From Deltaproteobacteria bacterium (GTDB lineage: Bacteria > Bacillota > Desulfotomaculia > Desulfotomaculales > JAGUVT01), in contig JAGUVT010000016.1 in NCBI GenBank assembly GCA_020062745.1, positions 1 through 62,782 of the forward strand: DNA of 62,782 nt, written 5' to 3'. A model generated the notes under the pieces. The model had not been told where the DNA came from. It saw nothing but the letters and a program-made list of their open reading frames with translations, and did not search any database. The position numbers and the translations under genes are program-made. Positions 12,630 to 61,460 of the stretch are shown piece after piece; position 1 is the stretch's first letter; each line of letters begins with the position of its first letter.

Positions 12630-12705
12630 GTTTAGCCGTTAGCGGTCGGCAGTTAGCTTTTTAGCATTACTCTTATATGGTCGATAGCCAAAGGCTGAAA
12701 GCTTA
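12630..12705. repeat. Intergenic repeat locus L1 (inverted pair of module-B-like units)
   Basis: GCCGTTAGCGGTCGGCAGTTAGC and CGATAGCCAAAGGCTGAAAGC resemble the GCTGATAGCTGACGGCTGAAAG units seen at other loci. Confidence 0.5.
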
Positions 12706-12755
12706 ATTTCTTTGTAATCCCTGCGGCTTCTAATTTAAAAGGTGGGTTGGCGTCG

Positions 12756-12977
12756 GTGGTTGAAAACTGTCTTTTTTGCCGGCAGCAAAGGCCGGTTACC
12801 GGGGAGGGTCTTCTGATCAGGGGGTATTTTATCTGTGCGGCATGTGAAGCGAAGATTACCTTGCTTTACAGGGAAGACCCCGATTATGATTTTTATTTGA
12901 ACGGTTTGAAAAAAATCTGGCATTCGCCTGGGGACGGGAACTGTGAAATAATGGCGGAAGAGTTCCGGTTATGGTAA
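12756..12977 (+). CDS. csfB: Anti-sigma-G/F factor Gin (CsfB)
   Basis: CLFC...CAAC zinc motif and DPDYDFYLNGLKKIW match Bacillus CsfB (DPDYAFYVKKLKSI). Syntenic position. Start is GTG 12756 or TTG 12747. Confidence 0.85.
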   Translation: MVENCLFCRQQRPVTGEGLLIRGYFICAACEAKITLLYREDPDYDFYLNGLKKIWHSPGDGNCEIMAEEFRLW

Positions 12978-13072
12978 AATAACAACACCTGGATATAAAA
13001 ATGCTTTTGCTTTTTTAAGAAAAAAACCGTTAACTTCGTAGCCCTCAAACTTCTCTGGCGGGAGGTTTGTTT

Positions 13073-14533
13073 TTGGCTCTTGAGCAAAACAGCGCTCCAT
13101 TGTTTGAAGCGTTGTGGCTTTATAACAGTAAAGGAACTGCCCACCTGCATACGCCGGGGCACTGCCGGGGCAGGGGCATACCTGAAACACTGGCTTCTTT
13201 TACCGGCCGGGCCGTATACAGTCTGGATTTGACGGAATTGCCGGGACTGGATGACCTGCATAATCCGGGTGGGGTCATTGCCCAGGCCCAGGCGCTGGCT
13301 GCCGCTGCTTTCGGCGCCGATCACACTTTCTTTTTAGTAAATGGTACAACGGCGGGTATACAGGCACTGTTATTGGCGACGGTTGGAGAGGGCGCAGTAA
13401 TTTTACCCAGAAACATGCACCGTTCGGTCCTCGGCGGGCTGATCCTGTCCGGCGCCAATCCGGTATACATGGTGCCGCCGGTTTTTCCCGGGTTTGGTTT
13501 TGCCGCGAGTATTACCCCGGAGCAACTGAAGGTGGCTCTGGCGGAATATCCTGAGGCGCGGGCAGTAATGATGGTGCATCCAAATTATTACGGTGTGGCA
13601 GGTGACCTGCCGGCGCTGGTTTCTGCTGTTCACGAAGTGGACAAACCCTTGCTGGTGGATGAGGCTCACGGGGCCCATTTGCGCTTTCATCCCGCCCTGC
13701 CGCCCGATGCCCTTTCGGCGGGCGCCGATGCTTCGGTACAGAGCACTCACAAACTGGGAGGTGCTTTGACTCAGGCCTCAATGCTGCATTTGAAGGGTTT
13801 CCGCCTGGACCGGGAACGGGTAGCTGCCGCCCTTAGGTATCAGCAGACAACCAGTCCGTCTTATATTTTAATGGTATCGCTGGATCTGGCCCGCCAGCAA
13901 CTCGCCCTGCACGGCCGGCCGCTGCTGGAACGGACTGTTGAACTGGCTGAAAAAACCAGAAGAAGGCTGGCTGCTATCAAAGGCCTTGTGGTTCTGGGGC
14001 CGGAACATGCGGGTAAGGCCGGAACATGTGTTTTTGATCCCACCCGGCTGGTAATTTGTGTGCGCGGCCTTGGTTTAAGCGGCTACCAGGTACATGAAAT
14101 GCTGGCCCGGCGCTACCAGGTACAGGTAGAGATGGCTGACTGGCATGATATTGTGGCCCTGGTTTCAATCGGGACTGCTGCCGGGGACTGCGAGCGCCTG
14201 GTGCAGGCAATGGCTGATATTGCCTGCCGGGAAGCCCGGCCGGCGGGAGTAACGGACTTTGCCGTTCCGGAAATGCCGGTATCCTATAAGAAGCAGATAA
14301 AACCCAGGGAAGCATGGTTTGCCCCGTCTTGCCGGGTTCCTCTGGCAGAAGCGAAAGGCCGGATCAGTTCTGAAATGGTTGCAGTTTATCCGCCTGGTAT
14401 CCCGGTGCTCTGTCCGGGTGAAGAAGTAACCGGGGAGGTTTATGAATATTTATCAGTTGTATGGCAAAAGGGTATCCCCTGTCAGGGACCTGGAGACCAA
14501 ACGCTCGCTACTTTAAAAGTTGTGGTAGAATAG
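13073..14533 (+). CDS. PLP-dependent Orn/Lys/Arg decarboxylase family protein (YaaO-like)
   Basis: HTPGH, STHKLGG (PLP lysine). Syntenic with Bacillus yaaO upstream of tmk. TTG 13073 lies 7 nt after GGAGG. Confidence 0.9.
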   Translation: MALEQNSAPLFEALWLYNSKGTAHLHTPGHCRGRGIPETLASFTGRAVYSLDLTELPGLDDLHNPGGVIAQAQALAAAAFGADHTFFLVNGTTAGIQALLLATVGEGAVILPRNMHRSVLGGLILSGANPVYMVPPVFPGFGFAASITPEQLKVALAEYPEARAVMMVHPNYYGVAGDLPALVSAVHEVDKPLLVDEAHGAHLRFHPALPPDALSAGADASVQSTHKLGGALTQASMLHLKGFRLDRERVAAALRYQQTTSPSYILMVSLDLARQQLALHGRPLLERTVELAEKTRRRLAAIKGLVVLGPEHAGKAGTCVFDPTRLVICVRGLGLSGYQVHEMLARRYQVQVEMADWHDIVALVSIGTAAGDCERLVQAMADIACREARPAGVTDFAVPEMPVSYKKQIKPREAWFAPSCRVPLAEAKGRISSEMVAVYPPGIPVLCPGEEVTGEVYEYLSVVWQKGIPCQGPGDQTLATLKVVVE

Positions 14534-14537
14534 GAAC

Positions 14538-15182
14538 ATGAAGGGTAAATTAATTGTTTTTGAAGGTATTGACGGTTCCGGTAAAACCACCCAGATGCAA
14601 ATTCTGGGGAGAAGGCTGGAGCGTCAGGGGTTCCCGGTGGTATATACCAGGGAGCCTGGTGGTACACGAGTGGGCGAGTCAATCCGGGGCATCCTTTTGG
14701 ACCCGCTGTACAGGGAGATGGAACCGCAAACTGAGGCCTTGCTTTACGCTGCTGCCCGGGCCCAGCACGTGGCCCAGTTGTTGCAGCCGGCTCTGGCGGC
14801 TGGAAAAGTAGTTTTATGTGACCGGTTTTTAGGTTCCAGTCTGGCTTACCAGGGTTTCGGCCGGGGCCTGTCGCTGGAGTTCATCGACCATATTAACAAT
14901 CTGGCTACTGGCGGGCTGAAACCGGACCTGGTACTTATTTTTGATTTATCGCCTTGTTTATGCTTAAAAAGGATTGGCGCGCAGGTAAATGAACTGGATC
15001 GTTTGGAAAGGGAAGAAATGGCTTTTCACCGGCGGGTGCGGGAAGGCTACCTTACCCTGGCCCGGCGTGAACCAGCCTGCTGCCGGGTTATCGACGGCCG
15101 GCAGACGGTGGAGCAGGTGCACGAAACGGTATGGAGAGAAGTAGAAAGATTTTTGCGTGAGGCTAATGCGGGAAATAAGTAG
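14538..15182 (+). CDS. tmk: dTMP (thymidylate) kinase
   Basis: FEGIDGSGKTTQ P-loop, TREPGGT, DRF motif. Confidence 0.96.
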   Translation: MKGKLIVFEGIDGSGKTTQMQILGRRLERQGFPVVYTREPGGTRVGESIRGILLDPLYREMEPQTEALLYAAARAQHVAQLLQPALAAGKVVLCDRFLGSSLAYQGFGRGLSLEFIDHINNLATGGLKPDLVLIFDLSPCLCLKRIGAQVNELDRLEREEMAFHRRVREGYLTLARREPACCRVIDGRQTVEQVHETVWREVERFLREANAGNK

Positions 15183-16035: not shown

Positions 16036-16746
16036 TTGCTGGCAGTGGCGATACGTTTTAAAAAGGCTGGTAAAATTTATTTTTTTGATCCTGGCGGACA
16101 CAAGCTGGCAGCGGGTGAGGGAGTTATAGTTGAGACGGCCAGGGGGATAGAATACGGACGGGTAGTTATGGAACCCGGCGAAGTGCCTGAAGAAGAAGTG
16201 ACGACTCCTTTGAAGAAAGTAATCAGGAAAGCTACCGCAGAAGATTATCAGCAGGTAAAAGCCAATCAGGAAAAAGAAGAAAGAGCGTTTCAAGTATGTC
16301 TGGAAAAAATAGCTCACCATAACTTGCCGATGAAACTGGTGAATGTGGATCAGACCTTTGACGGCAGTAAAATAGTTTTCTATTTTACTGCCGACGGCCG
16401 GATTGATTTTCGTGAGTTGGTTAAAGACCTGGCTTCTGTGTTCAGAACCAGGATTGAATTAAGACAGATCGGCGTACGTGACGAGGCTAAAATGATCGGG
16501 GGGCTGGGTTGTTGCGGGCGGGAATTATGTTGTTCGGCATGGCTCTCGGATTTTACTTCGGTATCGATTAAAATGGCCAAGGGGCAAAATCTTTCTCTCA
16601 ATCCGACCAAGATATCGGGTATCTGCGGACGATTGATGTGCTGTTTAAAATACGAGTGTGATGCTTATGAAAACGGCATGGAAGGCTTTATGGAAGAGAA
16701 TGGTGTGGTGATTGCTCCCAACGGGGAGAATAACAGCGAACCGTAA
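16036..16746 (+). CDS. ricT: PSP1-domain regulatory iron-sulfur protein RicT (YaaT)
   Basis: IRFKKAGKIYFFDP and the C-terminal cysteine cluster GCCGRELCCSAW...CGRLMCCLKYE. Confidence 0.93.
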   Translation: MLAVAIRFKKAGKIYFFDPGGHKLAAGEGVIVETARGIEYGRVVMEPGEVPEEEVTTPLKKVIRKATAEDYQQVKANQEKEERAFQVCLEKIAHHNLPMKLVNVDQTFDGSKIVFYFTADGRIDFRELVKDLASVFRTRIELRQIGVRDEAKMIGGLGCCGRELCCSAWLSDFTSVSIKMAKGQNLSLNPTKISGICGRLMCCLKYECDAYENGMEGFMEENGVVIAPNGENNSEP

Positions 16747-16764
16747 TAGCTGTATCTTCTCATT

Positions 16765-16848
16765 GTCATTGCGAGGAGTGAAACGACGAAGCAATCTCAA
16801 GGGCAACATTCGTAAGTATGGGATTGATTCGCTGCGGCTCGCAATGAA
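16765..16848. repeat. Intergenic repeat locus L2 (complete module A)
   Basis: GTCATTGCGAG...CGAAGCAATCTC...GGATTGATTCG...CTCGCAATGAA, a nested palindrome. It fills the ricT-rsmI spacer, where Bacillus has yabA-yabB-yazA. Confidence 0.85.
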
Positions 16849-16886
16849 AGAAAGGTTATTTTTCAGGAGAGCGCTGTTTTAAGAAG

Positions 16887-18057: not shown

Positions 18058-18211
18058 TCCTCTTTCCCCTCCTTTTCTCGTCATAATTCGACACAGAAGT
18101 AAATTTTATTACAAGTAAATGGTACCAACGGTTCCATTAAAAGTCAACATTTTTAGCAAAAAATTTTTAAAAAATTTTTATTGAAGGTGCTGCCGACAGG
18201 GAGTGTATAAC

Positions 18212-18241
18212 TTGACAAGTTCTGCTGGTTTCGTTTAGAAT
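18212..18241 (+). promoter_or_regulatory. Candidate sigma-A promoter for metG (TTGACA-18-TAGAAT)
   Basis: Hexamers read directly, about 75 nt upstream of the metG start. Confidence 0.45.
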
Positions 18242-18316
18242 TAGTTTGTGCAGCCTCTGCCGCTTAGTAAATTGTCTGGCAGGGGTTTGTCTTTTAAAAA
18301 AGAAAGAGGGAGAATT

Positions 18317-19936
18317 GTGCCTAAACCGACTTTTTATATCAGCACTCCTATTTATTACCCAAGCGACAATTTGCATATCGGACATGCTTATACTACTGTA
18401 GCGGCTGATGCCATGGCCCGTTTCAAACGGCTTACCGGCCACGATGTCTGGTTTTTGACCGGTTCGGACGAACATGGCCAGAAGATCGAGCGGGCGGCCA
18501 GGGCGAAGGGAGAAACCCCGCAGGGGTATGTGGATAAAATCGTAGAAGGGTTCAAATATCTTTGGACCCGGTTGGAGGTTAATTACAGCGATTTTATCCG
18601 TACCACCGAGGAGCGCCACAAGCGGGTGGTATCGGCAATCTTCCAGAAGCTTTACGATCAGGGAGATATTTACAAGGCCGGCTATGAAGGCTGGTACTGC
18701 ACGCCTTGTGAGACATTCTGGCCGGAGGGCAGGCTAGTGGAAGGCAACTGCCCGGACTGCGGGCGGCCGGTGGAACTCCTGCAGGAAGAGAGCTATTTTT
18801 TCAAGATGTCCAATTATGCCGGCCGGATCCTGCAGCACATCGAAACCCACCCCGGCTTTATCCAGCCTGCCAGCCGCCGCAATGAGATGATCAGTTTCAT
18901 TAAGAGCGGCCTGGAAGATCTGTGTGTCTCCCGCACCACTTTTAACTGGGGTATACCGGTTCCTTTTGACCCTAAACACGTCATTTATGTATGGGTGGAT
19001 GCTTTAACGAACTACATTTCAGCTCTCGGTTACGGTACGGAGGATGACGGCCTGTTTCGGAAGTACTGGCCCTGTGATGTGCATCTAGTCGGGAAGGATA
19101 TCGTGCGTTTTCACAGTATTATCTGGCCGGTTATTTTAATGGCGGCCGGGGTTGAACTGCCCAGGCAAGTAGTCGGCCACGGGTGGCTTCTTCTGGAAAG
19201 CGGCAAGATGTCCAAATCCAGGGGCAATGTGGTAGATCCCCTGGTTCTTATCGACCGGTACGGTGTGGATGCCGTCCGCTATTACTTGCTGCGGGAGATG
19301 CCTGTCGGCAGCGATGCCTATTACTCGGAAGAATTGCTGGTGAAACGCATTAATACGGATCTGGCCAATGATTTGGGGAACCTGGTCAGCCGTACAATAG
19401 CAATGATTGAAAAGTATTTCGATGGAAAAATAAAGGAACCCGCCGCTCCTGAAGAACTTGATCAGGAATTGATTGAACTGGCGGGGCAGGTTCCGGCTCA
19501 GGTGGAAGAACTGATGGACCGGCTGGAAATTGCCGATGCGCTGGCAGCCATCTGGCGCCTGGTGGGCCGGGCCAACAAGTATGTGGAAGAAACTGCCCCC
19601 TGGGCGCTGGCTAAAAACCCGGCCAGCCGGTCCCGCCTGGCCACCGTTTTGTATAACCTGGCGGAAAGCCTGCGCCTGATTGCCATTATGACCGGGTCTT
19701 TCATGCCTTTGTTGCCGCAAAGGATATGGTCTCAGTTAGGCATAGCCGATCGTCCGGAACTGCAATCCTGGGACTCGCTGGCCTGGGGGAGATTACCCTT
19801 CGAGAGAGATGAAACTGTGGTTGTAACTACGGCTGAGTCAAAACTAAGTGCTCCTGCCCCTTCGGTTATAACGGTTAAACGGGGGGAACCGTTGTTTCCT
19901 CGCATCGACCCGGCTTCTTTGGCTGGCGGAGGATAG
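18317..19936 (+). CDS. metG: Methionine--tRNA ligase (short form, no C-terminal EMAP/tRNA-binding domain)
   Basis: HIGHAYT (HIGH), KMSKSRGN (KMSKS), zinc knuckle CTPC...CPDCG. GTG at 18317 follows GAGGGAG. Confidence 0.96.
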   Translation: MPKPTFYISTPIYYPSDNLHIGHAYTTVAADAMARFKRLTGHDVWFLTGSDEHGQKIERAARAKGETPQGYVDKIVEGFKYLWTRLEVNYSDFIRTTEERHKRVVSAIFQKLYDQGDIYKAGYEGWYCTPCETFWPEGRLVEGNCPDCGRPVELLQEESYFFKMSNYAGRILQHIETHPGFIQPASRRNEMISFIKSGLEDLCVSRTTFNWGIPVPFDPKHVIYVWVDALTNYISALGYGTEDDGLFRKYWPCDVHLVGKDIVRFHSIIWPVILMAAGVELPRQVVGHGWLLLESGKMSKSRGNVVDPLVLIDRYGVDAVRYYLLREMPVGSDAYYSEELLVKRINTDLANDLGNLVSRTIAMIEKYFDGKIKEPAAPEELDQELIELAGQVPAQVEELMDRLEIADALAAIWRLVGRANKYVEETAPWALAKNPASRSRLATVLYNLAESLRLIAIMTGSFMPLLPQRIWSQLGIADRPELQSWDSLAWGRLPFERDETVVVTTAESKLSAPAPSVITVKRGEPLFPRIDPASLAGGG

Positions 19937-19943
19937 GTTTTAA

Positions 19944-20720
19944 ATGGGAGATTTGTTGCTTTTTGACACCCACACCCACCTCGGCGATCCGGATTTTGAC
20001 CAGGACCGGGCCCAGGTAATTGACCGGGCTGTGGTTGCCGGCCTGGTTAATATTATAAACGTGGGCTACGACCTGGAATCGGCCCGGTGGTCAGTGACCC
20101 TGGCAGAGGAGTATGATTTTATTTACGCTGCCGTGGGCATTCACCCTCATGAAGCGGCGAAGGTTCCCCCGGACTATCTTGCTGTGTTGGAGCAGTTGGC
20201 CGCCCACCCGAAGGTAAAAGCACTGGGTGAAATGGGTCTGGATTATTACCGCAATCTTTCCCCGCGACCGGTTCAGCAGCAGGTATTCAGGGAACAACTG
20301 GCGCTGGCCAGGGAATTGGATTTACCGGTTGTCATCCACGACCGGGACGCTCATGGGGATGTTCTTAAGCTTTTATGCCGGGACGGTGCGGGGCGGGCCG
20401 GCGGGGTAATGCATTGTTTTTCCGGCAGTTGGGAAATGGCCGGGGAATGTATTGATCTGGGGTTTTACATTTCTATTGCCGGGCCGGTGACTTTCCCGAA
20501 CGCTGCCCGGCTGAAAGATGTTGCCGCCCGTGTACCCTTGGATCGCCTGCTGCTGGAAACCGACGCCCCTTACCTTACCCCGGTTCCGTACCGGGGGCGG
20601 CGCAACGAGCCGGCCAATGTCCGCTGCGTGGTGGAGGAAATAGCCCGGCTTAAAGGGATGAATCCGGATGTGCTGGGCGGGGCGGTTGTGGAGAACGGCC
20701 GGCGCCTGTTCAGGATTTAA
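19944..20720 (+). CDS. tatD: TatD-family metal-dependent DNase/hydrolase (YabD)
   Basis: FDTHTHL, GEMGLDY, VIHDRDAH, ETDAPYL. Confidence 0.93.
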   Translation: MGDLLLFDTHTHLGDPDFDQDRAQVIDRAVVAGLVNIINVGYDLESARWSVTLAEEYDFIYAAVGIHPHEAAKVPPDYLAVLEQLAAHPKVKALGEMGLDYYRNLSPRPVQQQVFREQLALARELDLPVVIHDRDAHGDVLKLLCRDGAGRAGGVMHCFSGSWEMAGECIDLGFYISIAGPVTFPNAARLKDVAARVPLDRLLLETDAPYLTPVPYRGRRNEPANVRCVVEEIARLKGMNPDVLGGAVVENGRRLFRI

Positions 20721-20739
20721 AAGGGTGGAAGGGTTGTAA

Positions 20740-21267
20740 ATGAACAAGGGGCTATTGCTGGTGTTTACAGGGGACGGTAAAGGGAAAACTACGGCTGCCC
20801 TGGGAATGGCTTTAAGAGCGTGGGGGCAGGGGATGAAAGTTTTAGTCCTTCAATTTATCAAAGGCAGATGGGAGTCCGGTGAATTAAAAGCGGCTGAACG
20901 GTTAGGTCCTGGTTTTGCAATCAGGCAACTGGGCGGTGGGTTTACTCGCGACCCTGCCGGCCAGGTGCTGGAAGAGCACCGGGAGATTGCCCAAAAGGCG
21001 CTGTTATTTGCCCGTGACAAACTGAAGGCCGGAGATTACGACATGGTCATTCTAGATGAAATTCTTTATGCCCTAAAGTTTGGCCTGATTTCTTTAGAGG
21101 AAGTCCTTGTGCTTGTTTCTGAAAAGCCGGAAAACCTGCACCTGGTTTTAACTGGCCGCAATGCCCCGCCGGAAATTATCAGACAGGCCGACCTGGTGAC
21201 TGAGATGCGGTCAGTCAAGCACCATTTTGCCAGCGATATTCCGGCCCAAATGGGAATAGAATTTTAA
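20740..21267 (+). CDS. cobO: Cob(I)yrinic acid a,c-diamide adenosyltransferase (CobO/BtuR type)
   Basis: VFTGDGKGKTTAALGMALRAWGQG, VLQFIKG, LDE. Confidence 0.88.
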   Translation: MNKGLLLVFTGDGKGKTTAALGMALRAWGQGMKVLVLQFIKGRWESGELKAAERLGPGFAIRQLGGGFTRDPAGQVLEEHREIAQKALLFARDKLKAGDYDMVILDEILYALKFGLISLEEVLVLVSEKPENLHLVLTGRNAPPEIIRQADLVTEMRSVKHHFASDIPAQMGIEF

Positions 21268-21443
21268 TCACCTTTTGCCGGGAGGGCAAATATAATTAAT
21301 GGGGTAATATACGCGTGTCATATTGTGTTGTATATCCGGTGAATTTTTGTGGCCTTAAAAGGAAGGAATTTTTGGTTTGATTGTAGAACTAACTAAATGG
21401 TCTGGTTTTATGAAAGCCGGTTTGTTGGTAAGGGAGGTGTTTC

Positions 21444-22454
21444 ATGGGGTGGAGTGTTATCAAGCGGGCAAGGAAGGAAACCCTTAAAGAAAAACCCGGG
21501 CGCCGGGGTATTTTGTTCATATGGGCAGTGGTGGTTTTAGTAGCAGGAGGGTTATTGTTTGCAGGCTATGCCTGGGCGCAAAAGTCGGTGGTTCTTGTTA
21601 TTGACGGGCAGGAAAAAGAAATACATACTTTTGCCTACAAAGTAAGCGGCGTCTTGAGGGGACAGGGTATAATCCTGAGTGAAAAAGACGAAGTGACTCC
21701 CGGTTTGGTTGATCCGGTCGAAGATGGTATGGTAGTAGTGGTGAGCAAGGCGGTGCCGGTTAACATCGCTGTAGATGGCCGTGAATTTCAGGCCATGACC
21801 TGCCGTCGGAAGGTAGCCGAGGTGCTTTCCGAGTATGGTGTTAACCTTGACCCGGCAGACGAGGTTAACCCTACCCTGGACACAGAAGTGGTTGCCGGCA
21901 TGGAGATTGTGATAACCAGAGTGAGTACCGGGTTGGAGTATAAGGATGTGCCTGTTGTATACAACACCAGGCGAAATTATACTGCGGAACTGCCTCCAGG
22001 CGCCATGCAGGTGGTACGCGGAGGAGAAAACGGTATCAAGCGCCAGTGGTGGCAGGTTACCTATCGTGATGGCCGGGAGGTTGAGCGATCCCTAACAAAG
22101 CAGGAAATTTTAAAGCCGCCGGTTGACCGGCTATTGCGGGTAGGGAGCGAGCTGATTGTCTCCAGGGGAGGGGAACCGCTCCGTTATTCCCGGGTTTTGG
22201 AGATGCTGGCTACGGCTTATACTTATACCGGGAATAATACAGCATCCGGTAAGCCGCCTCATTTTGGCGTGGCGGCAGTTGATACCCGCGTTATACCAAT
22301 GCATACCAGGCTTTATGTGGAAGGATACGGCTATGCTGTTGCCCTGGACCGGGGCGGCGCCATAAAAGGAAACCGTATCGACCTATTTTATGAAACCGGT
22401 GCAGAAGCCAGAAGATGGGGCGTGCGCAAGGTAAAGGTTTATATTTTAGAGTAG
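21444..22454 (+). CDS. YabE/RpfB-like cell-wall protein (DUF348 repeats, G5, C-terminal 3D domain)
   Basis: N-terminal TM, repeated DUF348-like units, G5-like middle, and the 3D-domain motif ATAYTYTGNNTASG...GGAIKGNRIDLF. Confidence 0.85.
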   Translation: MGWSVIKRARKETLKEKPGRRGILFIWAVVVLVAGGLLFAGYAWAQKSVVLVIDGQEKEIHTFAYKVSGVLRGQGIILSEKDEVTPGLVDPVEDGMVVVVSKAVPVNIAVDGREFQAMTCRRKVAEVLSEYGVNLDPADEVNPTLDTEVVAGMEIVITRVSTGLEYKDVPVVYNTRRNYTAELPPGAMQVVRGGENGIKRQWWQVTYRDGREVERSLTKQEILKPPVDRLLRVGSELIVSRGGEPLRYSRVLEMLATAYTYTGNNTASGKPPHFGVAAVDTRVIPMHTRLYVEGYGYAVALDRGGAIKGNRIDLFYETGAEARRWGVRKVKVYILE

Positions 22455-22589
22455 CCACCCATCAATATTTTTGAAGTTGGGAGCGAAAAGCTCCTTTTTG
22501 TTTTGCCCGGAATGTGGAATAATAGAAAGGGGATAACAAAAGGATGTCGAATTACCTCAAGGGCAGGATCTTATGAAGGGGATCGGGCA

Positions 22590-23468
22590 ATGAATAATCT
22601 GGCTTCCGTGGCCGGTACGCGGGCACTGTTGAACAGTTATGGTTTTCGTTACCGGAAGAGTTTAGGCCAGAATTTTCTGGTTGATGCCGGTATTATTCAG
22701 AAAATTGTCGATACTGTTGAACCGGCCCCAATGGATGTGGTTATAGAAATCGGTCCCGGTCTGGGAACTCTTACCAGGCAGATAGCCAGGCGTGTAAGGA
22801 TGCTACTGGCGGTGGAGATTGATCCCCGCCTGTTGCCGATACTGGCAGATACTCTAAGCGGATATAATCATATCGAGATAATTCAGGGTGACGCTTTGGA
22901 GATTGATTTTGATCACCTGGTGGCGGCTAAAACGGCAAGTGAATTTGGGCAGGAAGGCAAGCCGTATAAACTGGTAGCCAACCTGCCCTATTATATTACC
23001 AGCCCGCTCCTGACCCGTCTGGTACTGGAGCGATTTAACATGTCTATGATGGTAATCATGGTACAACAGGAGGTAGCAGCTCGTTTAACGGCCGCGCCGG
23101 GGAACAAGAGTTATGGGTCGCTAAGTGTGCTTATCCAGTATTTTACGGAGCCGGAGCTGGTTTTTCAGGTGCCCCGGACGGCGTTCCATCCTTCACCGGG
23201 AGTGGATTCGGCTGTTGTGCAGCTGCGGGTTCGACCGGAACCGGCGGTGAGCGTTCTGGATGAAGCTCTTTTCTTTAAGGTGGTGAGGGCATCCTTTGCC
23301 CGGCGCCGCAAAAACATCCTGAATGCTTTGAGTGGCGCGATGGGTGGGATTTCTAAAGAGAAATGGCGTATAATACTGGAAAAGGCCGGTATAGATCCGG
23401 GGCGTAGAGGAGAAACTTTTAGTCTTACTGAGTTTGCTACAGTGGCCGATATGATCAAGGTCCTTTAA
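22590..23468 (+). CDS. rsmA: 16S rRNA (adenine1518/1519-N6)-dimethyltransferase
   Basis: KSLGQNFL, EIGPGLGTLT, NLPYYITSP. The ATG at 22590 is preferred over the listed 22503 start. Confidence 0.95.
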   Translation: MNNLASVAGTRALLNSYGFRYRKSLGQNFLVDAGIIQKIVDTVEPAPMDVVIEIGPGLGTLTRQIARRVRMLLAVEIDPRLLPILADTLSGYNHIEIIQGDALEIDFDHLVAAKTASEFGQEGKPYKLVANLPYYITSPLLTRLVLERFNMSMMVIMVQQEVAARLTAAPGNKSYGSLSVLIQYFTEPELVFQVPRTAFHPSPGVDSAVVQLRVRPEPAVSVLDEALFFKVVRASFARRRKNILNALSGAMGGISKEKWRIILEKAGIDPGRRGETFSLTEFATVADMIKVL

Positions 23469-23485
23469 GGAAAGAGGAGAAAAAA

Positions 23486-23956
23486 GTGCATTTTATCAGT
23501 CCTTCCAAAGGAAGAATGAACTTTGAAGAAATGATGACGGATATAACCGGTTATATTAAAGGGCTCCCCACCTCGCTGTATAAAATTATTATTGGTACCG
23601 ACTCACAGGTGAAAAGTGAGACCTCATTTATTACTGCTGTTATTGTGCACCGTATTGGCAAAGGAGCGCGTTATTATTACCATAAAAAAACCCACCGCAA
23701 GATAAAAAGCCTGCGCCAGAAAATTTTTCACGAGACCTCTTTAAGTTTGGAACTGGGGGGAATGGTGGCCAGGTTTTTTGCCAGAAGCGGCTATGAAGAC
23801 ATGAAGGTGGAGATTCATATTGATGTCGGCAATAATGGTGAGACTAAAGATCTAATTCGTGAAGTGGTAGGTATGGTTACCGGCAGCGGTTTCCGGGCCA
23901 GGATCAAGCCGGATGCTTACGGCGCATCCAGCGTAGCGGATAAACACACCAAGTAA
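23486..23956 (+). CDS. YkuK-family RNase H-like protein (DUF458)
   Basis: SPSKGRMNFEEMM...IIGTDSQV...TAVIVHRIGKGARYYY...LRQKIFHETSLSLE is collinear with Bacillus YkuK as I recall it. Confidence 0.75.
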   Translation: MHFISPSKGRMNFEEMMTDITGYIKGLPTSLYKIIIGTDSQVKSETSFITAVIVHRIGKGARYYYHKKTHRKIKSLRQKIFHETSLSLELGGMVARFFARSGYEDMKVEIHIDVGNNGETKDLIREVVGMVTGSGFRARIKPDAYGASSVADKHTK

Positions 23957-23973
23957 ATAAATTGCCACAATAT

Positions 23974-24768
23974 TTATGATATTTTAAGAAACTCCTCCAG
24001 CAAATCCCAGCGCCTTTCCAGGTGGTATCCGATGTATTCTTTTTGGCCGTCTGACCGGCAGCGTTTTTCGCTGCGGTGCAGGCAGAAAGCTTCCAGGTAG
24101 TCCCCGATAATTGTTTCGGCCACGAGCCGGGCATGTTCGGGGTCTTTTTCCGGTGAGCCGAGCATTTTATGCGGAATGACAGTACCTACTGCTACGGTCA
24201 GGCGCTGCCTGGCGGCCAGGGCCAGGGTTGCAGGGGGGATGGCCAGTTCCCGGAAAGGGATAGCCTGCAGCAGGCGCCGGGAAACGGCATGCGGTCCGTG
24301 GGAAGGGGAAGCGGCGCCGATGGTTTTGAACAGGCCGGCTTCCTTGTTGAATTCCTGCCGGATTTGCAAAAGATACCTGGCCAGAGAAGAGAGTTTTCTG
24401 GGGTAGTTCTCAGGGTAGCAATCGGTCAGGGCCAGGTCGGCTTCTTTCCGGATGATTAGATCAAGCAAGCCCCCAAGGTTTTCCGCAATGTCTCCGCTCA
24501 TATCCCCGTCGAGGAACAATACGCCGGTTGCCCCGCGGTCAAAGGCCAGCTTTGCTCCGATCGCCCTGGGGATATCAATGCCGAGGGCTTGTTTATAGTG
24601 TACCGGGGTGATATTAAAATAGAGAAATTTTTTAACTTTTTCCAGGGAGTTGTCGGTACACCCGTTGATAACCGGTATGATCAGATCGACGGGCAGGGAT
24701 GAAAGAGTGCGGATCACTTTTTCCAGTTGGGGCGCTTCGTTTCTGGCCGGAACGACGGCTGCGAACAT
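23974..24768 (-). CDS. GT-A fold glycosyltransferase family 2-like protein
   Basis: VVPARNEA start motif and DGD (DxD-like). GGGAGG RBS. Confidence 0.55.
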   Translation of the reverse strand: MFAAVVPARNEAPQLEKVIRTLSSLPVDLIIPVINGCTDNSLEKVKKFLYFNITPVHYKQALGIDIPRAIGAKLAFDRGATGVLFLDGDMSGDIAENLGGLLDLIIRKEADLALTDCYPENYPRKLSSLARYLLQIRQEFNKEAGLFKTIGAASPSHGPHAVSRRLLQAIPFRELAIPPATLALAARQRLTVAVGTVIPHKMLGSPEKDPEHARLVAETIIGDYLEAFCLHRSEKRCRSDGQKEYIGYHLERRWDLLEEFLKIS

Positions 24769-24878
24769 GGCATCCTCCCGCTCTTTTTAACATTATATGG
24801 TAAATTAAGGGAAATGTTGCTGGCCGCTGGTACATTACTCGAACCCCCTCATAATATGTTTTAAAGGGGGGTATTTCC

Positions 24879-25754: not shown

Positions 25755-26015
25755 ACGCTCATGCTGCGTTGCGGCACCAGCAGTGGAATGAAAATGCTGT
25801 ATGTCGTTGCGAGGATAAGCCGAAGCCGCGAGCGAAGCGTGGCGGGTAGCGACGAAGCAATCTTAAGGGCAACGTTTGCGAGTATGAGATTGCTTCGCGA
25901 GAAGCACTCGCAATGACACAGTAAGGGGTCATTTTCAGGGTAGGGTAGGCTCGGAATTCAGGAGATAGAAGTCAGAATTGAATGGCTGTTAGCTGATGGC
26001 TGACGGCTTAATTTT
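25754..26015. repeat. Intergenic repeat locus L3 (C block, full module A, tail, module B)
   Basis: GACGCTCATGCTGCGTTGCGGCACCAGC..., GTCGTTGCGAG...CGAAGCAATCTT...GAGATTGCTTCG...CTCGCAATGAC, GGGGTCATTTTCAGG, GCTGTTAGCTGATGGCTGACGGCT. Confidence 0.85.
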
Positions 26016-26085
26016 TTTCAGAGGGAACTTTTAGGCTGTTTTGATCGTCTAACTAATAAACGGAAAAAGAAGGGATGTCGCCGTT

Positions 26086-28032: not shown

Positions 28033-28080
28033 TTTCCGGGTTTTTTAAGCAAAATTTGTTTTGAAAAAAACCATATTTCA

Positions 28081-28200
28081 CCTGAAAATCGCCCTTTTTG
28101 TCATTGCGAGCCGCCCTCATATGTCATTGCGAGCGCCTCCCGCGAAGCAATCTCATTGACCCGAAGGGGATTGCCGCGGGCTTAAAGCCCTCGCAATGAC
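28081..28200. repeat. Intergenic repeat locus L4 (tail plus module A with a duplicated left terminus)
   Basis: CCTGAAAATCGCCCTTTTTGTCATTGCGAG, a second GTCATTGCGAG at 28123, CGAAGCAATCTC, and CTCGCAATGAC at 28190. Confidence 0.85.
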
Positions 28201-28260
28201 GCAGGGTGTGCTGACATTTTCATTCTTTGCGGCTGTGCCGCGCAAAGGCGGCATGAGTGT

Positions 28261-28704: not shown

Positions 28705-28767
28705 AAATATTGCCTCCGAAATGATTTTAGAAAAATTTTACCATTCGGGACCCTTGGTGTCAATATT

Positions 28768-28811: not shown

Positions 28812-28844
28812 GGCGAGTATTTTGCGTAACATTTGTCCGATAGA

Positions 28845-49365: not shown

Positions 49366-49490
49366 AGAGAGTAAAAGGCTCTCTTTTTTTATCATTATTT
49401 TGGCTGGTGAAACTTTTTACGGAAGAAGGAAAAGAAAACTTTTTGTTGAATGGGTAATAATACATAAAAACGTTAAGGAGATTGCTCTTT

Positions 49491-50855
49491 ATGCAACTGG
49501 CAGCAGTAATTCTGGCGGCCGGTAAAGGTACCCGGATGAAGTCAAAACTGCCAAAAGTTTTGCATAAGCTTTGCGGCCGGCCGATTATTGATTATGTTTT
49601 AGATGCTGTTCTTGCTGCCGGTATTGAAAAAGTTATAGTGGTGACCGGTTACGGGGCGCCGGAAGTTGCCCGGGTTTTGGGAGACCGGGCGGGAACAGCC
49701 CTTCAAGCGGAGCAGTTGGGTACCGCTCATGCCCTCCAGCAAGTCTACCCATATATAAAAGGTTTCCCCGGCCGATTGCTGGTTCTTTGTGGTGACACCC
49801 CTTTAATTTCCCCCCATACCTTTACTGATCTGGTTAAACAGCATATAGCTCTTGGCGCTTCGGCTACTATGCTGACAACGGAAATTCCGGATCCTGGCGG
49901 GTACGGCCGGGTAATCCGGGACGAGCAGGGCCGGGTGGTGCGGATTGTCGAACAAAAAGACGCCACTGCGGAGGAACTGCTGATCCGGGAGGTTAATACG
50001 GGCATATATTGCTTTGATGTGGCGGGACTCTTTGAATCTTTAGCTGAAATTTTGCCTGCCAATGCCCAGAAGGAATACTACCTTACCGATGTTATCGGGC
50101 TTTACGTGCGCCGGGGATTGGTTGTTGGCGCCGTAACGGCGGATTTCCGGGAAACCATGGGAATCAACGACCGCCGGCAGTTGGCCGCTGTGGAAGCCGT
50201 AATGCGCCGGCAGGTGCTGGATGACCTGATGGATTCCGGTGTTACGGTTATAGATCCCGCTTCTACTTTTGTCGACCGACAGGTCCGGATCGGGCAGGAT
50301 ACTGTAGTTTATCCTTTTACTTTTGTTGAAGGTAAAACAGTGATTGGTGAAGATTGCGTTATCGGGCCGGGTGCCCGGCTGGTTAATGCCCGGATCGGAA
50401 ACAACGTGACGATTCAACACTCCATAATTACGGATAGTGAGATAAACGACGGCGCATCGGTTGGCCCCTTTGCCTGTATTCGCCCGGAAACCGTGATTGG
50501 GCGAGGGGTCAGGGTGGGTAATTTTGTTGAGGTCAAAAAATCCGTAATTGGGAACAACAGCAAGGTGCCTCATTTAAGTTATGTGGGCGATGCCACTATC
50601 GGTGAAAACGTCAATATCGGGGCAGGCACTATTACCTGTAATTACGATGGTGAAAATAAGTGGCCTACCCGTATCGGGGACGGCGCTTTCGTCGGCAGCA
50701 ACACCAACCTGGTGGCGCCGGTAGAAGTGGGTCCCGGGGCGATCATCGGGGCGGGCTCCACCATAACCAAGGATGTTCCGGCCGGCGCCCTGGGCGTGGA
50801 GCGGGCCCGCCAGTCCGTCATTCCGAACTGGGCGGCTAAAAAGAAAAAGAGATAA
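49491..50855 (+). CDS. glmU: Bifunctional UDP-N-acetylglucosamine pyrophosphorylase / GlcN-1-P acetyltransferase
   Basis: AVILAAGKGTRMKS and C-terminal left-handed beta-helix hexapeptide repeats. Confidence 0.96.
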   Translation: MQLAAVILAAGKGTRMKSKLPKVLHKLCGRPIIDYVLDAVLAAGIEKVIVVTGYGAPEVARVLGDRAGTALQAEQLGTAHALQQVYPYIKGFPGRLLVLCGDTPLISPHTFTDLVKQHIALGASATMLTTEIPDPGGYGRVIRDEQGRVVRIVEQKDATAEELLIREVNTGIYCFDVAGLFESLAEILPANAQKEYYLTDVIGLYVRRGLVVGAVTADFRETMGINDRRQLAAVEAVMRRQVLDDLMDSGVTVIDPASTFVDRQVRIGQDTVVYPFTFVEGKTVIGEDCVIGPGARLVNARIGNNVTIQHSIITDSEINDGASVGPFACIRPETVIGRGVRVGNFVEVKKSVIGNNSKVPHLSYVGDATIGENVNIGAGTITCNYDGENKWPTRIGDGAFVGSNTNLVAPVEVGPGAIIGAGSTITKDVPAGALGVERARQSVIPNWAAKKKKR

Positions 50856-50979
50856 GACGCTTATGTCGCGTTGCGGCACCAGCGTAAAGGATGAAAATGA
50901 CGCATGTCATTGCGAGGGCTATTAAGCCCGTGGCAATTTCTACTAATGGACAATGTGCTGAAAACTGACTGCTGACGGC
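50856..50979. repeat. Intergenic repeat locus L11 (C block, left half of module A, module B)
   Basis: GACGCTTATGTCGCGTTGCGGCACCAGCG...GAAAATGACGCATGTCATTGCGAGG and CTGACTGCTGACGGCT. The C block is near-identical to 25754-25812. Confidence 0.85.
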
Positions 50980-51009
50980 TTGATTAAACTGTTTGGGGGT
51001 AGGCTTAAA

Positions 51010-53207: not shown

Positions 53208-53250
53208 TCGAAAATCCCTGTTTTATCGTTGCGAGCGACCTTGAGGCGAG
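53208..53250. repeat. Intergenic repeat locus L12 (tail plus degenerate left half of module A) inside the catabolic cluster
   Basis: GTCGAAAATCCCTGTTTTATCGTTGCGAGCGACC, compared with CCTGAAAATCGCCCTTTTTGTCATTGCGAGCCGCC at 28081. Confidence 0.65.
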
Positions 53251-53283
53251 CCCCGATCATCATTTTGGCTTCTGGAGGTTTAT

Positions 53284-57067: not shown

Positions 57068-57196
57068 ACAGCTGACGCGGCGATAGCAATGAGTAAAACA
57101 TATTGCCTCCCTGGTGTTATTGTGGGGGCAAAGCCAAAAAGCAATCTTGAACTGATAGCTTATATGGGGTCGCTTCGCCTTAAGGCTCGCAATGAC
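57068..57196. repeat. Intergenic repeat locus L13 (modules B-like, inner A, right terminus of A) inside the catabolic cluster
   Basis: AGCTGACGCGGCGATAGC, AAAAGCAATCTTGAACTGATAGCTTAT, CGCTTCGCCTTAAGGCTCGCAATGAC. Confidence 0.75.
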
Positions 57197-57248
57197 AAGA
57201 AAAAAGGTTTTTGAAGGCAACGCACTTAAGATATTGAGGGGGAAGCTT

Positions 57249-58400
57249 ATGGACTTTGAACTTACTGACGAGCAAAAGATGCTTAAAAGCAACGTGCGCC
57301 GGTTTTTAGAAAAAGAGGTTCAGCCCCTGGTCGACCAGTACGAGCGTTCCGCGACGCCTGTATCGAGGGATATAGTCAAGAGGCTTTTGCCGTTTGGTTA
57401 TATCGGCGGCATGCTGCCGGAAGAAGCCGGCGGTTATGGTATGGACTATACCACTTATTTTTTATTAATCGAGGAACTTTCCCGGACATGGCCTTCCTTA
57501 CGGGCGGCCGTCGGAATTACCAATCACATGTTAACGTATATTTACGAGTACGGAACCGGGGAACAGCGGGAGAAATTTGTCGGGCCGCTGGTAAGGGCCG
57601 ACAAGATGGGATTTTTTGCCCTTACCGAGCCTAACGTAGGGTCGGATGCTTCTGCCGTGGAGACGACTGCTGTGCAGCAGGGCGACGAGTGGATTTTGAA
57701 TGGCACGAAAATGTTTATTACCAACGGGCAGGACGGTGAAACCGGCATTGTTATCGCCCAAACCGACAAGGCTAAAGGAAGTAAGGGCATAACCGCTTTT
57801 ATCGTGGAAAAAGGCAAAACCAGCTATAAAACCAGGCCGATTGAAAAAATCGGGATGCATTGTTGCCCCACAGTGGAAATGGTCTTTGAAGACGCACGGG
57901 TACCGGCGGAAAATATACTTGGGGGGATCGGTAATGGTTTAAAGTTGGGGCTAAAGTTTTTAAACAGTGCCCGGGCCATGGTGGCTTTTATCAGTGCCGG
58001 GGTGGCGCAGGGTTGTGTCGATGCGGCTGTCAAATATGCCAAGGAACGAATCCAGTTTGGTAAGCCGATTGGCAGTTTTCAACTGATCCAGAGTAAAATT
58101 GCTGAAATGCTCACCCTGACATCTGCCATGCGCCTTTTAGGTTTGCAGGCTTCTTACCTGTTGGATAAAGGGAGACCCTGCCAGGTAGAAGCGTCTATGG
58201 CCAAGCTTTTTTCTACCGATGCTGTGCTCAAAGTAGCTGAAATGGCTATTCAGATTCACGGCGGGTACGGGTGCAGCATGGAGTTTCCGGTAGAGCGTTA
58301 TTATCGTGACATGAGACATTTTACCATTGCTGAAGGAACCAATGAAATCCAGCGCCTGATTATCGGGCGGGAGGTGTTGGGTATTCCGGCATTCAAATAG
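57249..58400 (+). CDS. Acyl-CoA dehydrogenase
   Basis: MDFELTDEQKML start, FALTEPNVGSDAS, QIHGGYG, catalytic-base context AEGTNEIQRL. The listed 57192 start reads out of the repeat. Confidence 0.93.
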   Translation: MDFELTDEQKMLKSNVRRFLEKEVQPLVDQYERSATPVSRDIVKRLLPFGYIGGMLPEEAGGYGMDYTTYFLLIEELSRTWPSLRAAVGITNHMLTYIYEYGTGEQREKFVGPLVRADKMGFFALTEPNVGSDASAVETTAVQQGDEWILNGTKMFITNGQDGETGIVIAQTDKAKGSKGITAFIVEKGKTSYKTRPIEKIGMHCCPTVEMVFEDARVPAENILGGIGNGLKLGLKFLNSARAMVAFISAGVAQGCVDAAVKYAKERIQFGKPIGSFQLIQSKIAEMLTLTSAMRLLGLQASYLLDKGRPCQVEASMAKLFSTDAVLKVAEMAIQIHGGYGCSMEFPVERYYRDMRHFTIAEGTNEIQRLIIGREVLGIPAFK

Positions 58401-60428: not shown

Positions 60429-60497
60429 TAAAAACTCTTTCCACTTTTGCTTTATCCGGGTTACAATGTTGAGGATGGAAAAGCAGAGGTGGCGAGT

Positions 60498-61085
60498 ATG
60501 AAATTGCTTGTCGGCCTGGGCAACCCGGGCCGGGAATATGTCGGCACCAGGCACAATATGGGATTTATGGTTATTGACCGGCTGGCGTCGATTTTGGAGG
60601 CGCCGGTAAAAAAGCGGCTTTTTCGGGCTTTGACCGGCCGGGGAGAGTTGGCCGGGGAAGAAATAATCCTGGCCAAACCGCAGACCCATATGAACTTGAG
60701 CGGGGAAGCGGTAGGGGCCCTGTTAAACTGGTACAAGCCGGGTTTTTCCAACCTCCTGGTTATATATGACGACCTGGACTTGCCGGCGGGACGCCTGCGG
60801 TTGCGTCCGCGGGGAGGAGCGGGTGGTCACAAAGGGATGCAGTCGATAATTCAGGCTCTGGGCACGGATGTTTTTCCCCGCCTGAGGGTGGGTATCGGCA
60901 GGCCGCAGGAGCCCTGTGCCGGAGCAGATTTTGTGCTGAAGCGGTTTGCCCCGGAGGAGACTGAAAAATTTGCCGGCATTGTAGAGGTTGCTGCCGAAGC
61001 TGTCCGGTGTTTCATATGTGAGGGGTTGGAACAGGCGATGAACCGGTATAACCGGTATAATAATTCAGATAATGTATATATTTAG
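60498..61085 (+). CDS. pth: Peptidyl-tRNA hydrolase
   Basis: MKLLVGLGNPGREYVGTRHNMGF, YDDLDLP, GGHKGM. Confidence 0.96.
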   Translation: MKLLVGLGNPGREYVGTRHNMGFMVIDRLASILEAPVKKRLFRALTGRGELAGEEIILAKPQTHMNLSGEAVGALLNWYKPGFSNLLVIYDDLDLPAGRLRLRPRGGAGGHKGMQSIIQALGTDVFPRLRVGIGRPQEPCAGADFVLKRFAPEETEKFAGIVEVAAEAVRCFICEGLEQAMNRYNRYNNSDNVYI

Positions 61086-61155
61086 TGGTTCTGCAGTAAG
61101 ATAAAGGATAAAGGTTTTAGTAATGTTTTAAGTAATAGGAGCAATATTATTATTG

Positions 61156-61383
61156 ATGAAAGTCTACTATATTTGTGAATGCTGTGAAGCTTTAGTGAAG
61201 GAAGTCGAAGTTTCTTCCCTGGGAACAAGTGATCCGGTTGACGGCTTGACCGGGCAGGAATGCTGCGCTAGAATAGAAGATACCGATTTCAACGGGGTTT
61301 TTTTAGTTACTCTTTGTGATGACTGTAGAGAATCCCTGCAGGGGAGAAGCGAGTCTTTTTACTACGGATTGCTGTTAAATTAG
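61156..61383 (+). CDS. fin: Anti-sigma-F factor Fin (YabK)
   Basis: YYICECC...LCDDCRESL is collinear with Bacillus Fin (YYCRHCG...ICEDCQEAL). Syntenic between pth and mfd. Confidence 0.85.
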   Translation: MKVYYICECCEALVKEVEVSSLGTSDPVDGLTGQECCARIEDTDFNGVFLVTLCDDCRESLQGRSESFYYGLLLN

Positions 61384-61417
61384 TGACGGCTTAAGTAGTG
61401 TGTGCTGCAGGCAACCG

Positions 61418-61460
61418 AAGCAATCTCAATGCTGACGGCTGAAAGATTGCTGCGTTCCCG
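61418..61460. repeat. Intergenic repeat locus L14 (inner module A palindrome plus module B core)
   Basis: CGAAGCAATCTCAATGCTGACGGCTGAAAGATTGCTGCG. Confidence 0.7.

Follow-up and report, generated by a model that had tools for sequence, protein, structure and literature searches.

A stem class of Ssn-related palindromic repeats, probable targets of a GIY-YIG nuclease, in the intergenic spacers of a Peptococcaceae-relative metagenome contig

The window analysed in this study, one entire 62.8-kb metagenome contig, carries in its intergenic spacers a family of short palindromic repeats built from an arm here called module A. This arm very probably represents a stem class of the Ssn-related motif (SRM), equivalent to a CGTC-tagged repetitive extragenic palindrome (REP), and its sequence points to a role as the hairpin target of an Ssn-family GIY-YIG nuclease acting on single-stranded DNA (ssDNA). 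The arms are placed with the SRMs and the CGTC REPs because, in other genomes, they flank a GIY-YIG gene whose product is 44% identical to SsnA, with the catalytic Y/Y/E residues aligned. The stem class and the host lineage are new, whilst the SRM/CGTC-REP system served by Ssn nucleases is already known. Action of an Ssn enzyme on the copies of this organism is inferred by analogy, as is the route by which units lacking an open reading frame (ORF) spread. Homologues of TatD place the window in a relative of Peptococcaceae/Pelotomaculum, and its gene order is that of the Firmicute dnaX-recR..csfB..tmk-holB-ricT-rsmI-metG-tatD..ksgA..yabG region.

A first-pass annotation, made from the sequence alone, had reported nine exact copies of an 11-nt terminus, GTCATTGCGAG, and a search of both strands of the window recovered the same nine coordinates (16765, 28100, 28123 and 50906 on the plus strand; 25907, 28190, 34752, 40371 and 57186 on the minus strand). 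With one mismatch allowed the count rises to 11, through 16838 (minus) and 25803 (plus), against 0.68 ± 0.84 in shuffles, none of 100 of which reached 11, so that the claim of a repeat beyond chance holds. These two were also among the three copies called near-exact; the third, ATCGTTGCGAG at 53225, has two mismatches and belongs to a degenerate arm. All copies lie within the intergenic 13.4% of the window (estimated from a simple gene map), in agreement with the earlier view that they are non-coding. The search likewise confirmed the inner palindrome, CGAAGCAATCT..AGATTGCTTCG, as well as the tail, CCTGAAAAT..CCCTT. Eight loci with module A, one with the inner palindrome only (61416–61454) and six with only the further modules B, D or E were counted, consistent with the at least 14 loci first proposed.

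The module A unit is an arm of 26–60 nt with the layout Y-GTC-ATTGC-GAG-(variable insert)-CGAA-GCAAT-C-Y.. As ssDNA the arm can adopt a hairpin in which ATTGC pairs with GCAAT as a 5-bp foot, followed by a G/A-rich internal loop (GAG/CGAA) and a variable distal mini-hairpin, usually closed by a GNA triloop. Arms are mostly arranged as inverted pairs of one long and one short arm, which puts one arm on each strand. The window holds three such full pairs (16764–16849, 25802–25918 and 28122–28201), single arms in both orientations (34733–34763, 40321–40381 and 57154–57196 on the minus strand, 50905–50938 on the plus strand), an orphan terminus at 28100 and two degenerate pieces at 53225 and 61416. 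The predicted ssDNA folds of full pairs are long hairpins or three- to four-way junctions, with z from -3.2 to -9.3. Among the 11 termini of the window the tag is GTCAT in nine, TTCAT in one and GTCGT in one; the ATTGC..GCAAT foot is present in every arm, and GCAAT-C in eight of 10, the exceptions being 50906 (GCAATT) and 57154 (GCGACC).

The distribution of the arm was assessed by a scan of one genome per species with the exact pattern GTCATTGCGAG-N5-25-CGAAGCAATC (21 specified bases), which matched at least 120 stretches; the statistics given below (172 arms, 95 full elements) come from the scan matches listed, and L-numbers denote loci from other genomes or metagenomes used for comparison. 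At least 12 phyla carry the same arm, and there are matches in Bradyrhizobium, Sphingomonas, Pedobacter, Chryseobacterium, Microcoleus, Chloroflexus and Anaerolineae, and further ones in Desulfobacterota, Planctomycetota, Patescibacteria, Zixibacteria, Omnitrophota, Helicobacter rodentium and Sporomusa malonica. Many of the matched genomes are those of isolates with finished genomes. By BLAST the element was also found on replicons of Novosphingobium, Methylosinus, Methylocystis, Calothrix and Legionella, and one 1.76-Mb replicon has at least 40 element places. Homologues of a 648-aa beta-propeller protein from metagenomes (36–52% identical) are non-syntenic, and arms are near-absent from about 270 kb around them.

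The variable position of the 172 arms holds 96 distinct inserts of 5 to >25 nt, self-complementary and specific to the copy (CCGCC..GGCGG, GACCGGCA..TGCCGGTC, CCCCGATGT..ACATCGGGG). Short arms read G-CGNAG-C, where N is A in 31, C in 14, T in seven and G in four, and this equals d(GCGNAGC), a mini-hairpin known as a motif of DNA (PMC13037366). The preference for GNA triloops gives no more than indirect support for a structure formed at the DNA level. Position -1 is a pyrimidine in 75 of the 82 arms from other genomes that the scan pattern did not constrain; in unconstrained partner arms GTC, ATTGC and GCAAT-C are conserved at about 0.7–0.96, with the tail C-A-G. The 95 full elements are 69–195 nt long (median 85), are flanked by a Y..R base pair, and nearly always join one long (GAG-G..) to one short (GAG-C..) arm. 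A different arrangement was observed in a metagenome-assembled genome (MAG) of Chloroflexus (L009, 1290–1956), where arms of the same orientation form arrays with a period of 50–51 nt and identical spacers; this is tandem amplification and not inverted pairing.

Partner genes were sought as ORFs lying between distant arm pairs. At a Planctomycetota locus (L059) the central loop of the element is taken up exactly by a 96-aa ORF of the GIY-YIG family, and homologues of its product (65–74% identical, 95–99 aa) occur in several phyla. Arms of the module A class flank the ORF at this seed locus and at all six independent homologue loci tested (L149, L159, L169, L170, L171, L172); in four of the seven (L059, L149, L159, L170) the downstream arm begins at the stop codon or just past it. 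In Chryseobacterium (L064) the gene of a more distant homologue is followed by a different repeat class, GTCATTCCGCAGGAATC. The L059 protein aligns without gaps to N. gonorrhoeae SsnA over 89 aa at 44% identity (BLASTP, E = 2e-26), and tblastn against N. gonorrhoeae gave E = 9e-17 over 93% of the query. Its Y9/Y20/E67 align with the catalytic Y6/Y17/E64 of SsnA, and Pfam assigns PF01541 only. The gonococcal gene is flanked by seven exact copies of the Neisseria repeat NTS, which confirms its identity; it was recovered from a mislabelled plasmid record, as two 2.17-Mb Neisseria gonorrhoeae chromosomes (NZ_CP119140.1 and NZ_CP119142.1) are filed as plasmids in PLSDB. Homologues in the SRM system have been defined by E < 1e-10 over >75% of the length and a single GIY-YIG domain of ~94 aa (Chenal et al., 2025; PMC11893778), a definition that takes in the L059-type protein. 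The closest solved structures are of the UPF0213/YazA type, a weak match (E = 4e-4). That Bacillus carries the GIY-YIG gene yazA in the ricT-rsmI spacer was considered and set aside as a coincidence, given this weak match and the lack of any relic of such a gene in the spacer.

In Neisseria, the gene ssnA, which encodes a single GIY-YIG domain of 94 aa, lies between hairpins of the NTS kind (CGTCATTCCCGCGMAVGCGGGAATCYRG, belonging to dRS3) and of related SRMs, in a repeat-gene-repeat layout resembling an insertion sequence (IS) (Chenal et al., 2025). Modulation of recombination has been shown for NTS. SsnA binds and cuts the NTS hairpin strand-specifically and as ssDNA only, not as double-stranded DNA or in its RNA form, and the cut lies a few nucleotides upstream; cutting requires the GTC before the palindrome, binding depends most critically on the C that immediately follows it, and the loop is dispensable, replaceable and extendable (Chenal et al., 2025). 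By analogy, a small single-domain Ssn-family nuclease encoded elsewhere in the genome would bind the arm hairpin as ssDNA only and nick it a few nucleotides 5' of the GTC tag, with GTC serving cutting and the C after the palindrome serving binding. An inverted pair would present one cuttable arm on each strand. ORF-less pairs look like non-autonomous derivatives of an arm-ssn-arm unit, in which the nuclease gene fills the central loop. Cleavage at the arms would affect ssDNA exposed in transformation, conjugation, repair or replication and would modulate recombination, and the unit would spread selfishly through an ssDNA route. Binding sites, one of the roles first suggested for the repeats, are right in kind; the arms carry the GTC and C features that SsnA needs.

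Several points weigh against this assignment. The foot stem is only 5 bp, and for a single arm the nearest-neighbour DNA parameters predict no stable fold (z about 0). The 3' tails in the window read ATC-Y-Y-A and not ATCYRG, a partial fit, and elsewhere the tail is C-A-G. The published SRM string, HGTCWYN(0-2)YYVSBRHN(0-5)WNVSBRGN(0-2)RNCYNB, has no match in the window (0.33 expected at random), in the 172 arms or in eight GIY-YIG loci; it fails at 'YY' because the arm stem starts TG, and it does match NTS-type repeats in L013, L105, L085 and L092. SRM membership of the arms hence rests on the shared flanks and the link to the protein, rather than on the published definition. The nuclease genes tested are all at least 67% identical to the seed, so the association is known for one subfamily only. 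Ssn enzymes have so far been assayed only on other stem classes, which makes cleavage of the present arms a prediction from homology. Finally, a search of the window, of the related locus L146 and of the syntenic parts of L147 and L148 found neither an ssn gene nor a relic of one.

This last result would agree with the copies being inert relics in a lineage that has lost its Ssn unit, as would the many single, truncated or diverged arms (53225, 57154, 61416) and the identity of the elements between two strains that are 99.8% identical. This is judged unlikely: nine of the 11 outer termini are exact 11-mers, the three full pairs are intact, and 81% of genomes with >200 SRMs have an ssn homologue in the published survey (Chenal et al., 2025). 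Differences in occupancy from L146, which has the same gene order and a TatD 82% identical, also imply activity since the two split. Units are present there in the cobO-yabE and yabE-ksgA spacers, which in the window are 176 nt and 48 nt long and hold no element, whilst the yabG spacer contains differently built elements in the two. The comparison of orthologous spacers proposed in the first-pass annotation thus does reveal presence/absence differences, and these filled and empty spacers suggest recent mobility. Because spacer occupancy differs, the family would have been active after the split from L146; because strains 99.8% identical have identical elements, it appears stable over short timescales. 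No indels were found in elements in the strain-level comparisons (L149–L158, L159–L168, and the window with L002), and the syntenic 20 kb of P. thermopropionicum contains no unit.

The ricT-rsmI spacer (window region 16036–16886) had been singled out as one where an element replaces a missing syntenic gene, and comparison with P. thermopropionicum agrees with this. RicT is 236 aa long, against 297 aa in that species, and ends five codons past the last aligned residue; yabA is absent, and the element begins 18 nt after the ricT stop codon. The short RicT and the loss of yabA may reflect a deletion associated with the element.

Module A loci in the window all lie between same-direction or convergent genes, with none in the approximately six divergent spacers. 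Such a location would be expected of 3' untranslated hairpins that terminate transcription, shield mRNA or set operon expression, as proposed for the REPs of E. coli, and three composite units directly after stop codons and the stable folding of full pairs would also fit a primary role in RNA. Such a role is nevertheless improbable. A T-run follows none of the arms, which removes support for the suggestion that they are termination structures, and a terminator scan of the window picked up only module B at 25984; single arms are oriented three with and three against transcription. GNRA and UNCG tetraloops are typical of RNA hairpins, and the arms have GNA triloops instead. There is in addition no Rfam match, and SsnA does not bind the RNA form of NTS (Chenal et al., 2025). 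A secondary effect of the elements in RNA is possible.

The description of the repeats as REP- or MITE-like (MITE, miniature inverted-repeat transposable element) stands for its REP half, given the tag, the A-T stem, the tail and the pairing, and finds no support for its MITE half. It is very improbable that these are classical REPs or REPINs mobilised by a REP-associated tyrosine transposase (RAYT; IS200-like, Y1/HUH) encoded elsewhere in the genome, even though imperfect palindromes, inverted pairs, the lack of target duplication and intergenic sites downstream of genes are shared with that architecture. The tag is (C/T)GTC and not GTAG, and CGTC repeats were found to flank no tyrosine transposase gene (Di Nocera, De Gregorio and Rocco, 2013; PMC3733652). 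A single-sequence phmmer search over all ORFs of the 120 loci listed found no E. coli RayT-like ORF in ~0.9 Mb around 170 arms from >100 genomes, nor in the window, bearing out the first-pass statement that the window has no RAYT, and the gene between the arms was GIY-YIG at seven of seven loci. MITEs derived by deletion from a DDE-type IS, with GTCATTGCGAG..CGAAGCAATC as the terminal inverted repeat, are hardly credible as an explanation. Inverted termini, a length of 70–120 nt, a high copy number and a DDE transposase gene between arms at L044 would suit them, but a target-site duplication is lacking in 90 of the 95 full elements, arms also occur singly and in arrays of one orientation (L009), and the conserved blocks are spaced 5 to >25 nt apart by self-complementary inserts, unlike the footprint of a transposase on double-stranded DNA.

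The L044 case itself, in a Patescibacteria MAG (556–1838), is a DDE-type IS with terminal repeats of its own (TAATTAGTACCCTAATGGTTGAT) and a 325-aa ORF, sitting exactly at the junction of two adjacent pairs. As it is inserted between them, its gene was rejected as an autonomous partner of the arms, and no arm-bounded transposase gene with target duplications was seen; the repeats here serve as an IS target, as has been reported for REPs.

A bolder proposal may be entertained, tentatively and with the balance leaning against it. On this view an Ssn nuclease would act in trans to copy the ORF-less long/short pairs and, in this lineage, the ~190-nt composites, which would then be genuinely mobile but non-autonomous. 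Arm-ssn-arm would be the first transposon-like element of bacteria to depend on a GIY-YIG ssDNA nuclease, adding a third route to those of the DDE and HUH enzymes. The stem class would have crossed at least 12 phyla by horizontal spread whilst its 21-nt recognition sequence stayed nearly invariant, and the preference of the composite unit for the base immediately behind a stop codon would be target choice.

The other modules are also intergenic and occur in the window above chance, as first noted, yet the view that all belong to a single modular family did not hold. Module B consists of two to four tandem heptamers CTGA-Y-R-G in spacers (for example CTGATAG CTGACGG CTGACAG; CTGA-NNN repeated three times has five matches, none expected), module D is a CACAGAG-based palindrome (GCCACAGAG, three matches against 0.17 expected) and module E is a 16-mer with two copies (0.1 expected). 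Modules B and D were not found beside arms in other phyla, with the exception of one heptamer run (CTGATAA CTGATAA CTGACTA) adjoining an arm in Planctomycetota (L074). Modules B, D and E are therefore separate, co-located repeats, and the link of module B to module A is local to this lineage. Only the tail and a further piece, module F, form a fixed composite with module A. Aligned copies from the window and L146 give a unit of about 170–200 nt, GACGCTCATGCCGC-gtt-GCGGC..GAATGAAAATG..TAT-(core pair)-A-AAAGGG-T-ATTTTCAGG, with an additional outer stem, TGAAAATG/CATTTTCA, gained in this Peptococcaceae lineage.

The F end (GACGCTCATGCCGC) lies directly after the stop codons of three unrelated genes of the window (25752–25757, 28258–28263 and 50853–50858). 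It accounts for the earlier remark that some copies start exactly at stop codons, which module F, then unnamed, does at 25755, 28260 (minus strand) and 50856. YabG has the same length in L146, where module F is absent, and for this reason the element does not supply the yabG stop codon. The placement behind stop codons may reflect either target choice or selection. The coordinates of all features are given in Table 1.

Table 1. Repeat features located in the 62.8-kb window
Feature	Position	Strand	Details
Full inverted pair, ricT-rsmI spacer	16764–16867		Long arm 16765–16796 (+); short arm 16822–16848 (-); tail AGAAAGGTTATTTTTCAGG 16849–16867; ssDNA long hairpin, z = -3.2
Module F	25755–25801	+	Directly after yabG stop codon; hairpin ACGCTCATGCTGCgttGCGGC and GAATGAAAATG (outermost stem half); from copy alignment, repeat family
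Full inverted pair	25802–25939		Long arm 25803–25862 (+) with 39-nt insert at variable position; short arm 25888–25917 (-); tail 25919–25939 (..TCATTTTCAGG); z = -3.7
Module B, GCTGTTAGCTGATGGCTGACGGCT, then T-run	25984–26018	+	Terminator-like
Reverse tail CCTGAAAATCGCCCTTTTT and orphan outer terminus GTCATTGCGAG	28078–28110		Terminus 28100–28110
Full inverted pair	28122–28201		Arm 28123–28152 (+); arm 28169–28200 (-) with side hairpin GGC-TTTAA-GCC; z = -5.7
Module F	28205–28260	-	Adjoins stop codon of minus-strand gene 28261–28704
Module E, GCGAAGCCTTAAAGCA	34624–34639	+	Second copy 32168–32183
Module B, tandem heptamers GCTGATA GCTGACG GCTGACA GC	34702–34724	+	
Single arm GTCATTGCGAG-CGCTTTTCG-CGAAACAATC and tail AAAGGGTTATTTTCAGA	34733–34780	-	Arm 34733–34763; just upstream of ribosome-binding site of gene 34799
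Single arm	40321–40381	-	Module B copy (40343–40365) at variable position; outer terminus 40371–40381
Module F	50856–50904	+	Directly after stop codon of gene 49482–50855
Single arm TGTCATTGCGAG-GGCTATTAAGCC-CGTGGCAATT	50905–50938	+	Side hairpin GGC-TATTAA-GCC
Module B, GCTGAAAACTGACTGCTGACGGCTTGATT	50957–50985	+	
Degenerate arm (ATCGTTGCGAG.., two mismatches)	53210–53260	+	Tail-like GAAAATCCCTGTTTT before it; low confidence
Single arm GTCATTGCGAG-CCTTAAGG-CGAAGCGACC	57154–57196	-	Inner half diverged
Inner palindrome only, CGAAGCAATCT..AGATTGCTGCG	61416–61454		Module B fragment in loop; without outer termini
Module B-like heptamer stretches	12634–12708		Upstream of csfB (gin)
Module D, ..CTCTGTGGC	31321–31353	-	Inverted partner of 39249 copy
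Module B array CTGACTGCTGAATGCTTATGGCTGATAGC	32233–32294	+	Downstream of module E 32168–32183
Module B-like array CTGAATTCTGAATCCTGACTGCTGA	36442–36515	+	
Module D palindrome GCCACAGAGGGCACAGAAAACACAG ... CTCTGTGAACTCTGTGGC	39249–39322		

Some other repeats were observed in the same window. Its first 8 kb contain a 224-nt direct repeat (586–809 and 6079–6302, 89% identical) resembling the 3' end of a coding sequence with a terminator hairpin, and an 81-nt inverted repeat (392–472 and 8060–8140, 83% identical) with copies ~7.6 kb apart; some other duplicated or mobile segment occupies this part. The 14-kb contig L002, which comes from a different metagenome, matches window 18196–32169 at 99.8% identity, and its positions 1–98 equal window 2–99, reflecting either a rearrangement or an assembly join at the contig end. 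The sole indel across these 14 kb is a difference of one unit in an 11-nt tandem repeat, TTTAACATAAA, at about 28756–28800 of the window, in the divergent promoter spacer 28705–28832.

The arms are among the most widespread short bacterial repeats, with the same 21 specified bases found from Bradyrhizobium to Chloroflexus, Pedobacter, Helicobacter, Patescibacteria and this Peptococcaceae bacterium. As the published SRM string misses this class entirely, surveys using it will undercount SRMs and score some ssn genes as lacking repeats. By analogy with SsnA, the arm and its partner protein offer a defined pair of site and enzyme, a candidate site-specific ssDNA nuclease with a new specificity; the loop position of the site naturally tolerates large inserts. 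The filled and empty spacers, together with the units abutting stop codons, provide a tractable case for how Ssn-linked repeats spread, a question left open by Chenal et al. (2025). Annotation is affected as well, since the elements give rise to spurious small ORFs and false starts, as in the ATG within CTCGCAATGAC (57186–57196; in CAATGAC), a false upstream start inside the repeat for ORF 57192–58400. The remark in the first-pass annotation that such sequences are mis-annotated as tiny ORFs is borne out by one direct case, L146 8309–8461, where a 50-aa gene in IMG (MPPSTAPAQKMKMSSHPTVIAMAKARSNLLQMDEIASPVARNDKKGGNLE, ..IASPVARNDK..) runs across the element.

The first-pass annotation had also allowed that the repeats might be real and already described, and this applies in kind, although Rfam itself has no match. 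At gathering threshold Rfam detected only the signal recognition particle RNA and tRNA-Ser, with nothing on the elements at E up to 10, and Pfam gave no match to the translated elements. Full-text literature searches for the 11-mers, longer strings and peptide translations returned primers only or nothing. The heptamers of module B are presumably akin to the short tandemly repeated repetitive (STRR) heptamers of cyanobacteria. Intergenic direct repeats of the heptamer TAACTGA have been reported in Beggiatoaceae, cyanobacteria and Bacteroidetes (MacGregor, 2015; PMC4679880); module B shares their CTGA core and period, and differs in being GC-richer, degenerate and low in copy number, in some cases with a hairpin and T-run.

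Compared with REP, REPIN and BIME systems and their RAYTs (Bertels and Rainey, 2011), the arms are likewise small imperfect palindromes that flank the gene of a small nuclease and would be recognised by it as ssDNA hairpins, with an inverted pair as the presumed spreading unit and no target duplication, and their heterotypic pairing resembles that of the Y and Z REPs of E. coli. They differ in having a GIY-YIG instead of an HUH/Y1 enzyme and a GTC instead of a GTAG tag. Four families of CGTC-tagged REPs, CGTC-1 to -4, have been described from five phyla, mostly Alphaproteobacteria (Di Nocera et al., 2013); the module A class, which may itself be one of them, was compared with these by description. 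On that description both have a CGTC/TGTC tag, an A-T stem start and a short unpaired CCA-like tail. In both, repeats are mostly paired, commonly as heterodimers, with spacers of 20–100 nt that are in some cases structured; they lie between same-direction or convergent genes, lack a RAYT and occur as several classes per genome. CGTC families 1–4 are described with a contiguous stem of 8–9 bp and a loop of 4–5 nt, whereas module A arms have five contiguous pairs, an interrupted stem and a variable insert, and span at least 12 phyla in the present scan as opposed to five.

With regard to NTS, the stem of the arm is ATTGC/GCAAT with a GAG/CGAA internal loop and a distal mini-hairpin, unlike the contiguous TTCCCGCG/CGCGGGAA stem of NTS; the heterotypic long/short inverted pairs, the Gram-positive Peptococcaceae-relative host and the outer stem with module F are further differences. 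Repeats of the two kinds do occur in the same genomes, NTS-type TGTCATTCCCGCGAAAGCGGGAATCCAG repeats lying near or beside module A-class arms in L013, L105, L085 and L092, and at L035 (about 3311–3460) the SRM class GTCATTCCGGG.. directly abuts arms of the module A class. NTS is flanked as CGTCAT..hairpin..ATCYRG, and the arms share these flanks. Like SRM and NTS repeats, the arms have a (C/T)GTCAT tag, a palindrome stem starting ATT, a C right after it and an ATC-Y.. tail, with a variable loop, intergenic copies that number in the hundreds in some genomes, and repeats flanking a GIY-YIG gene of ~95 aa.

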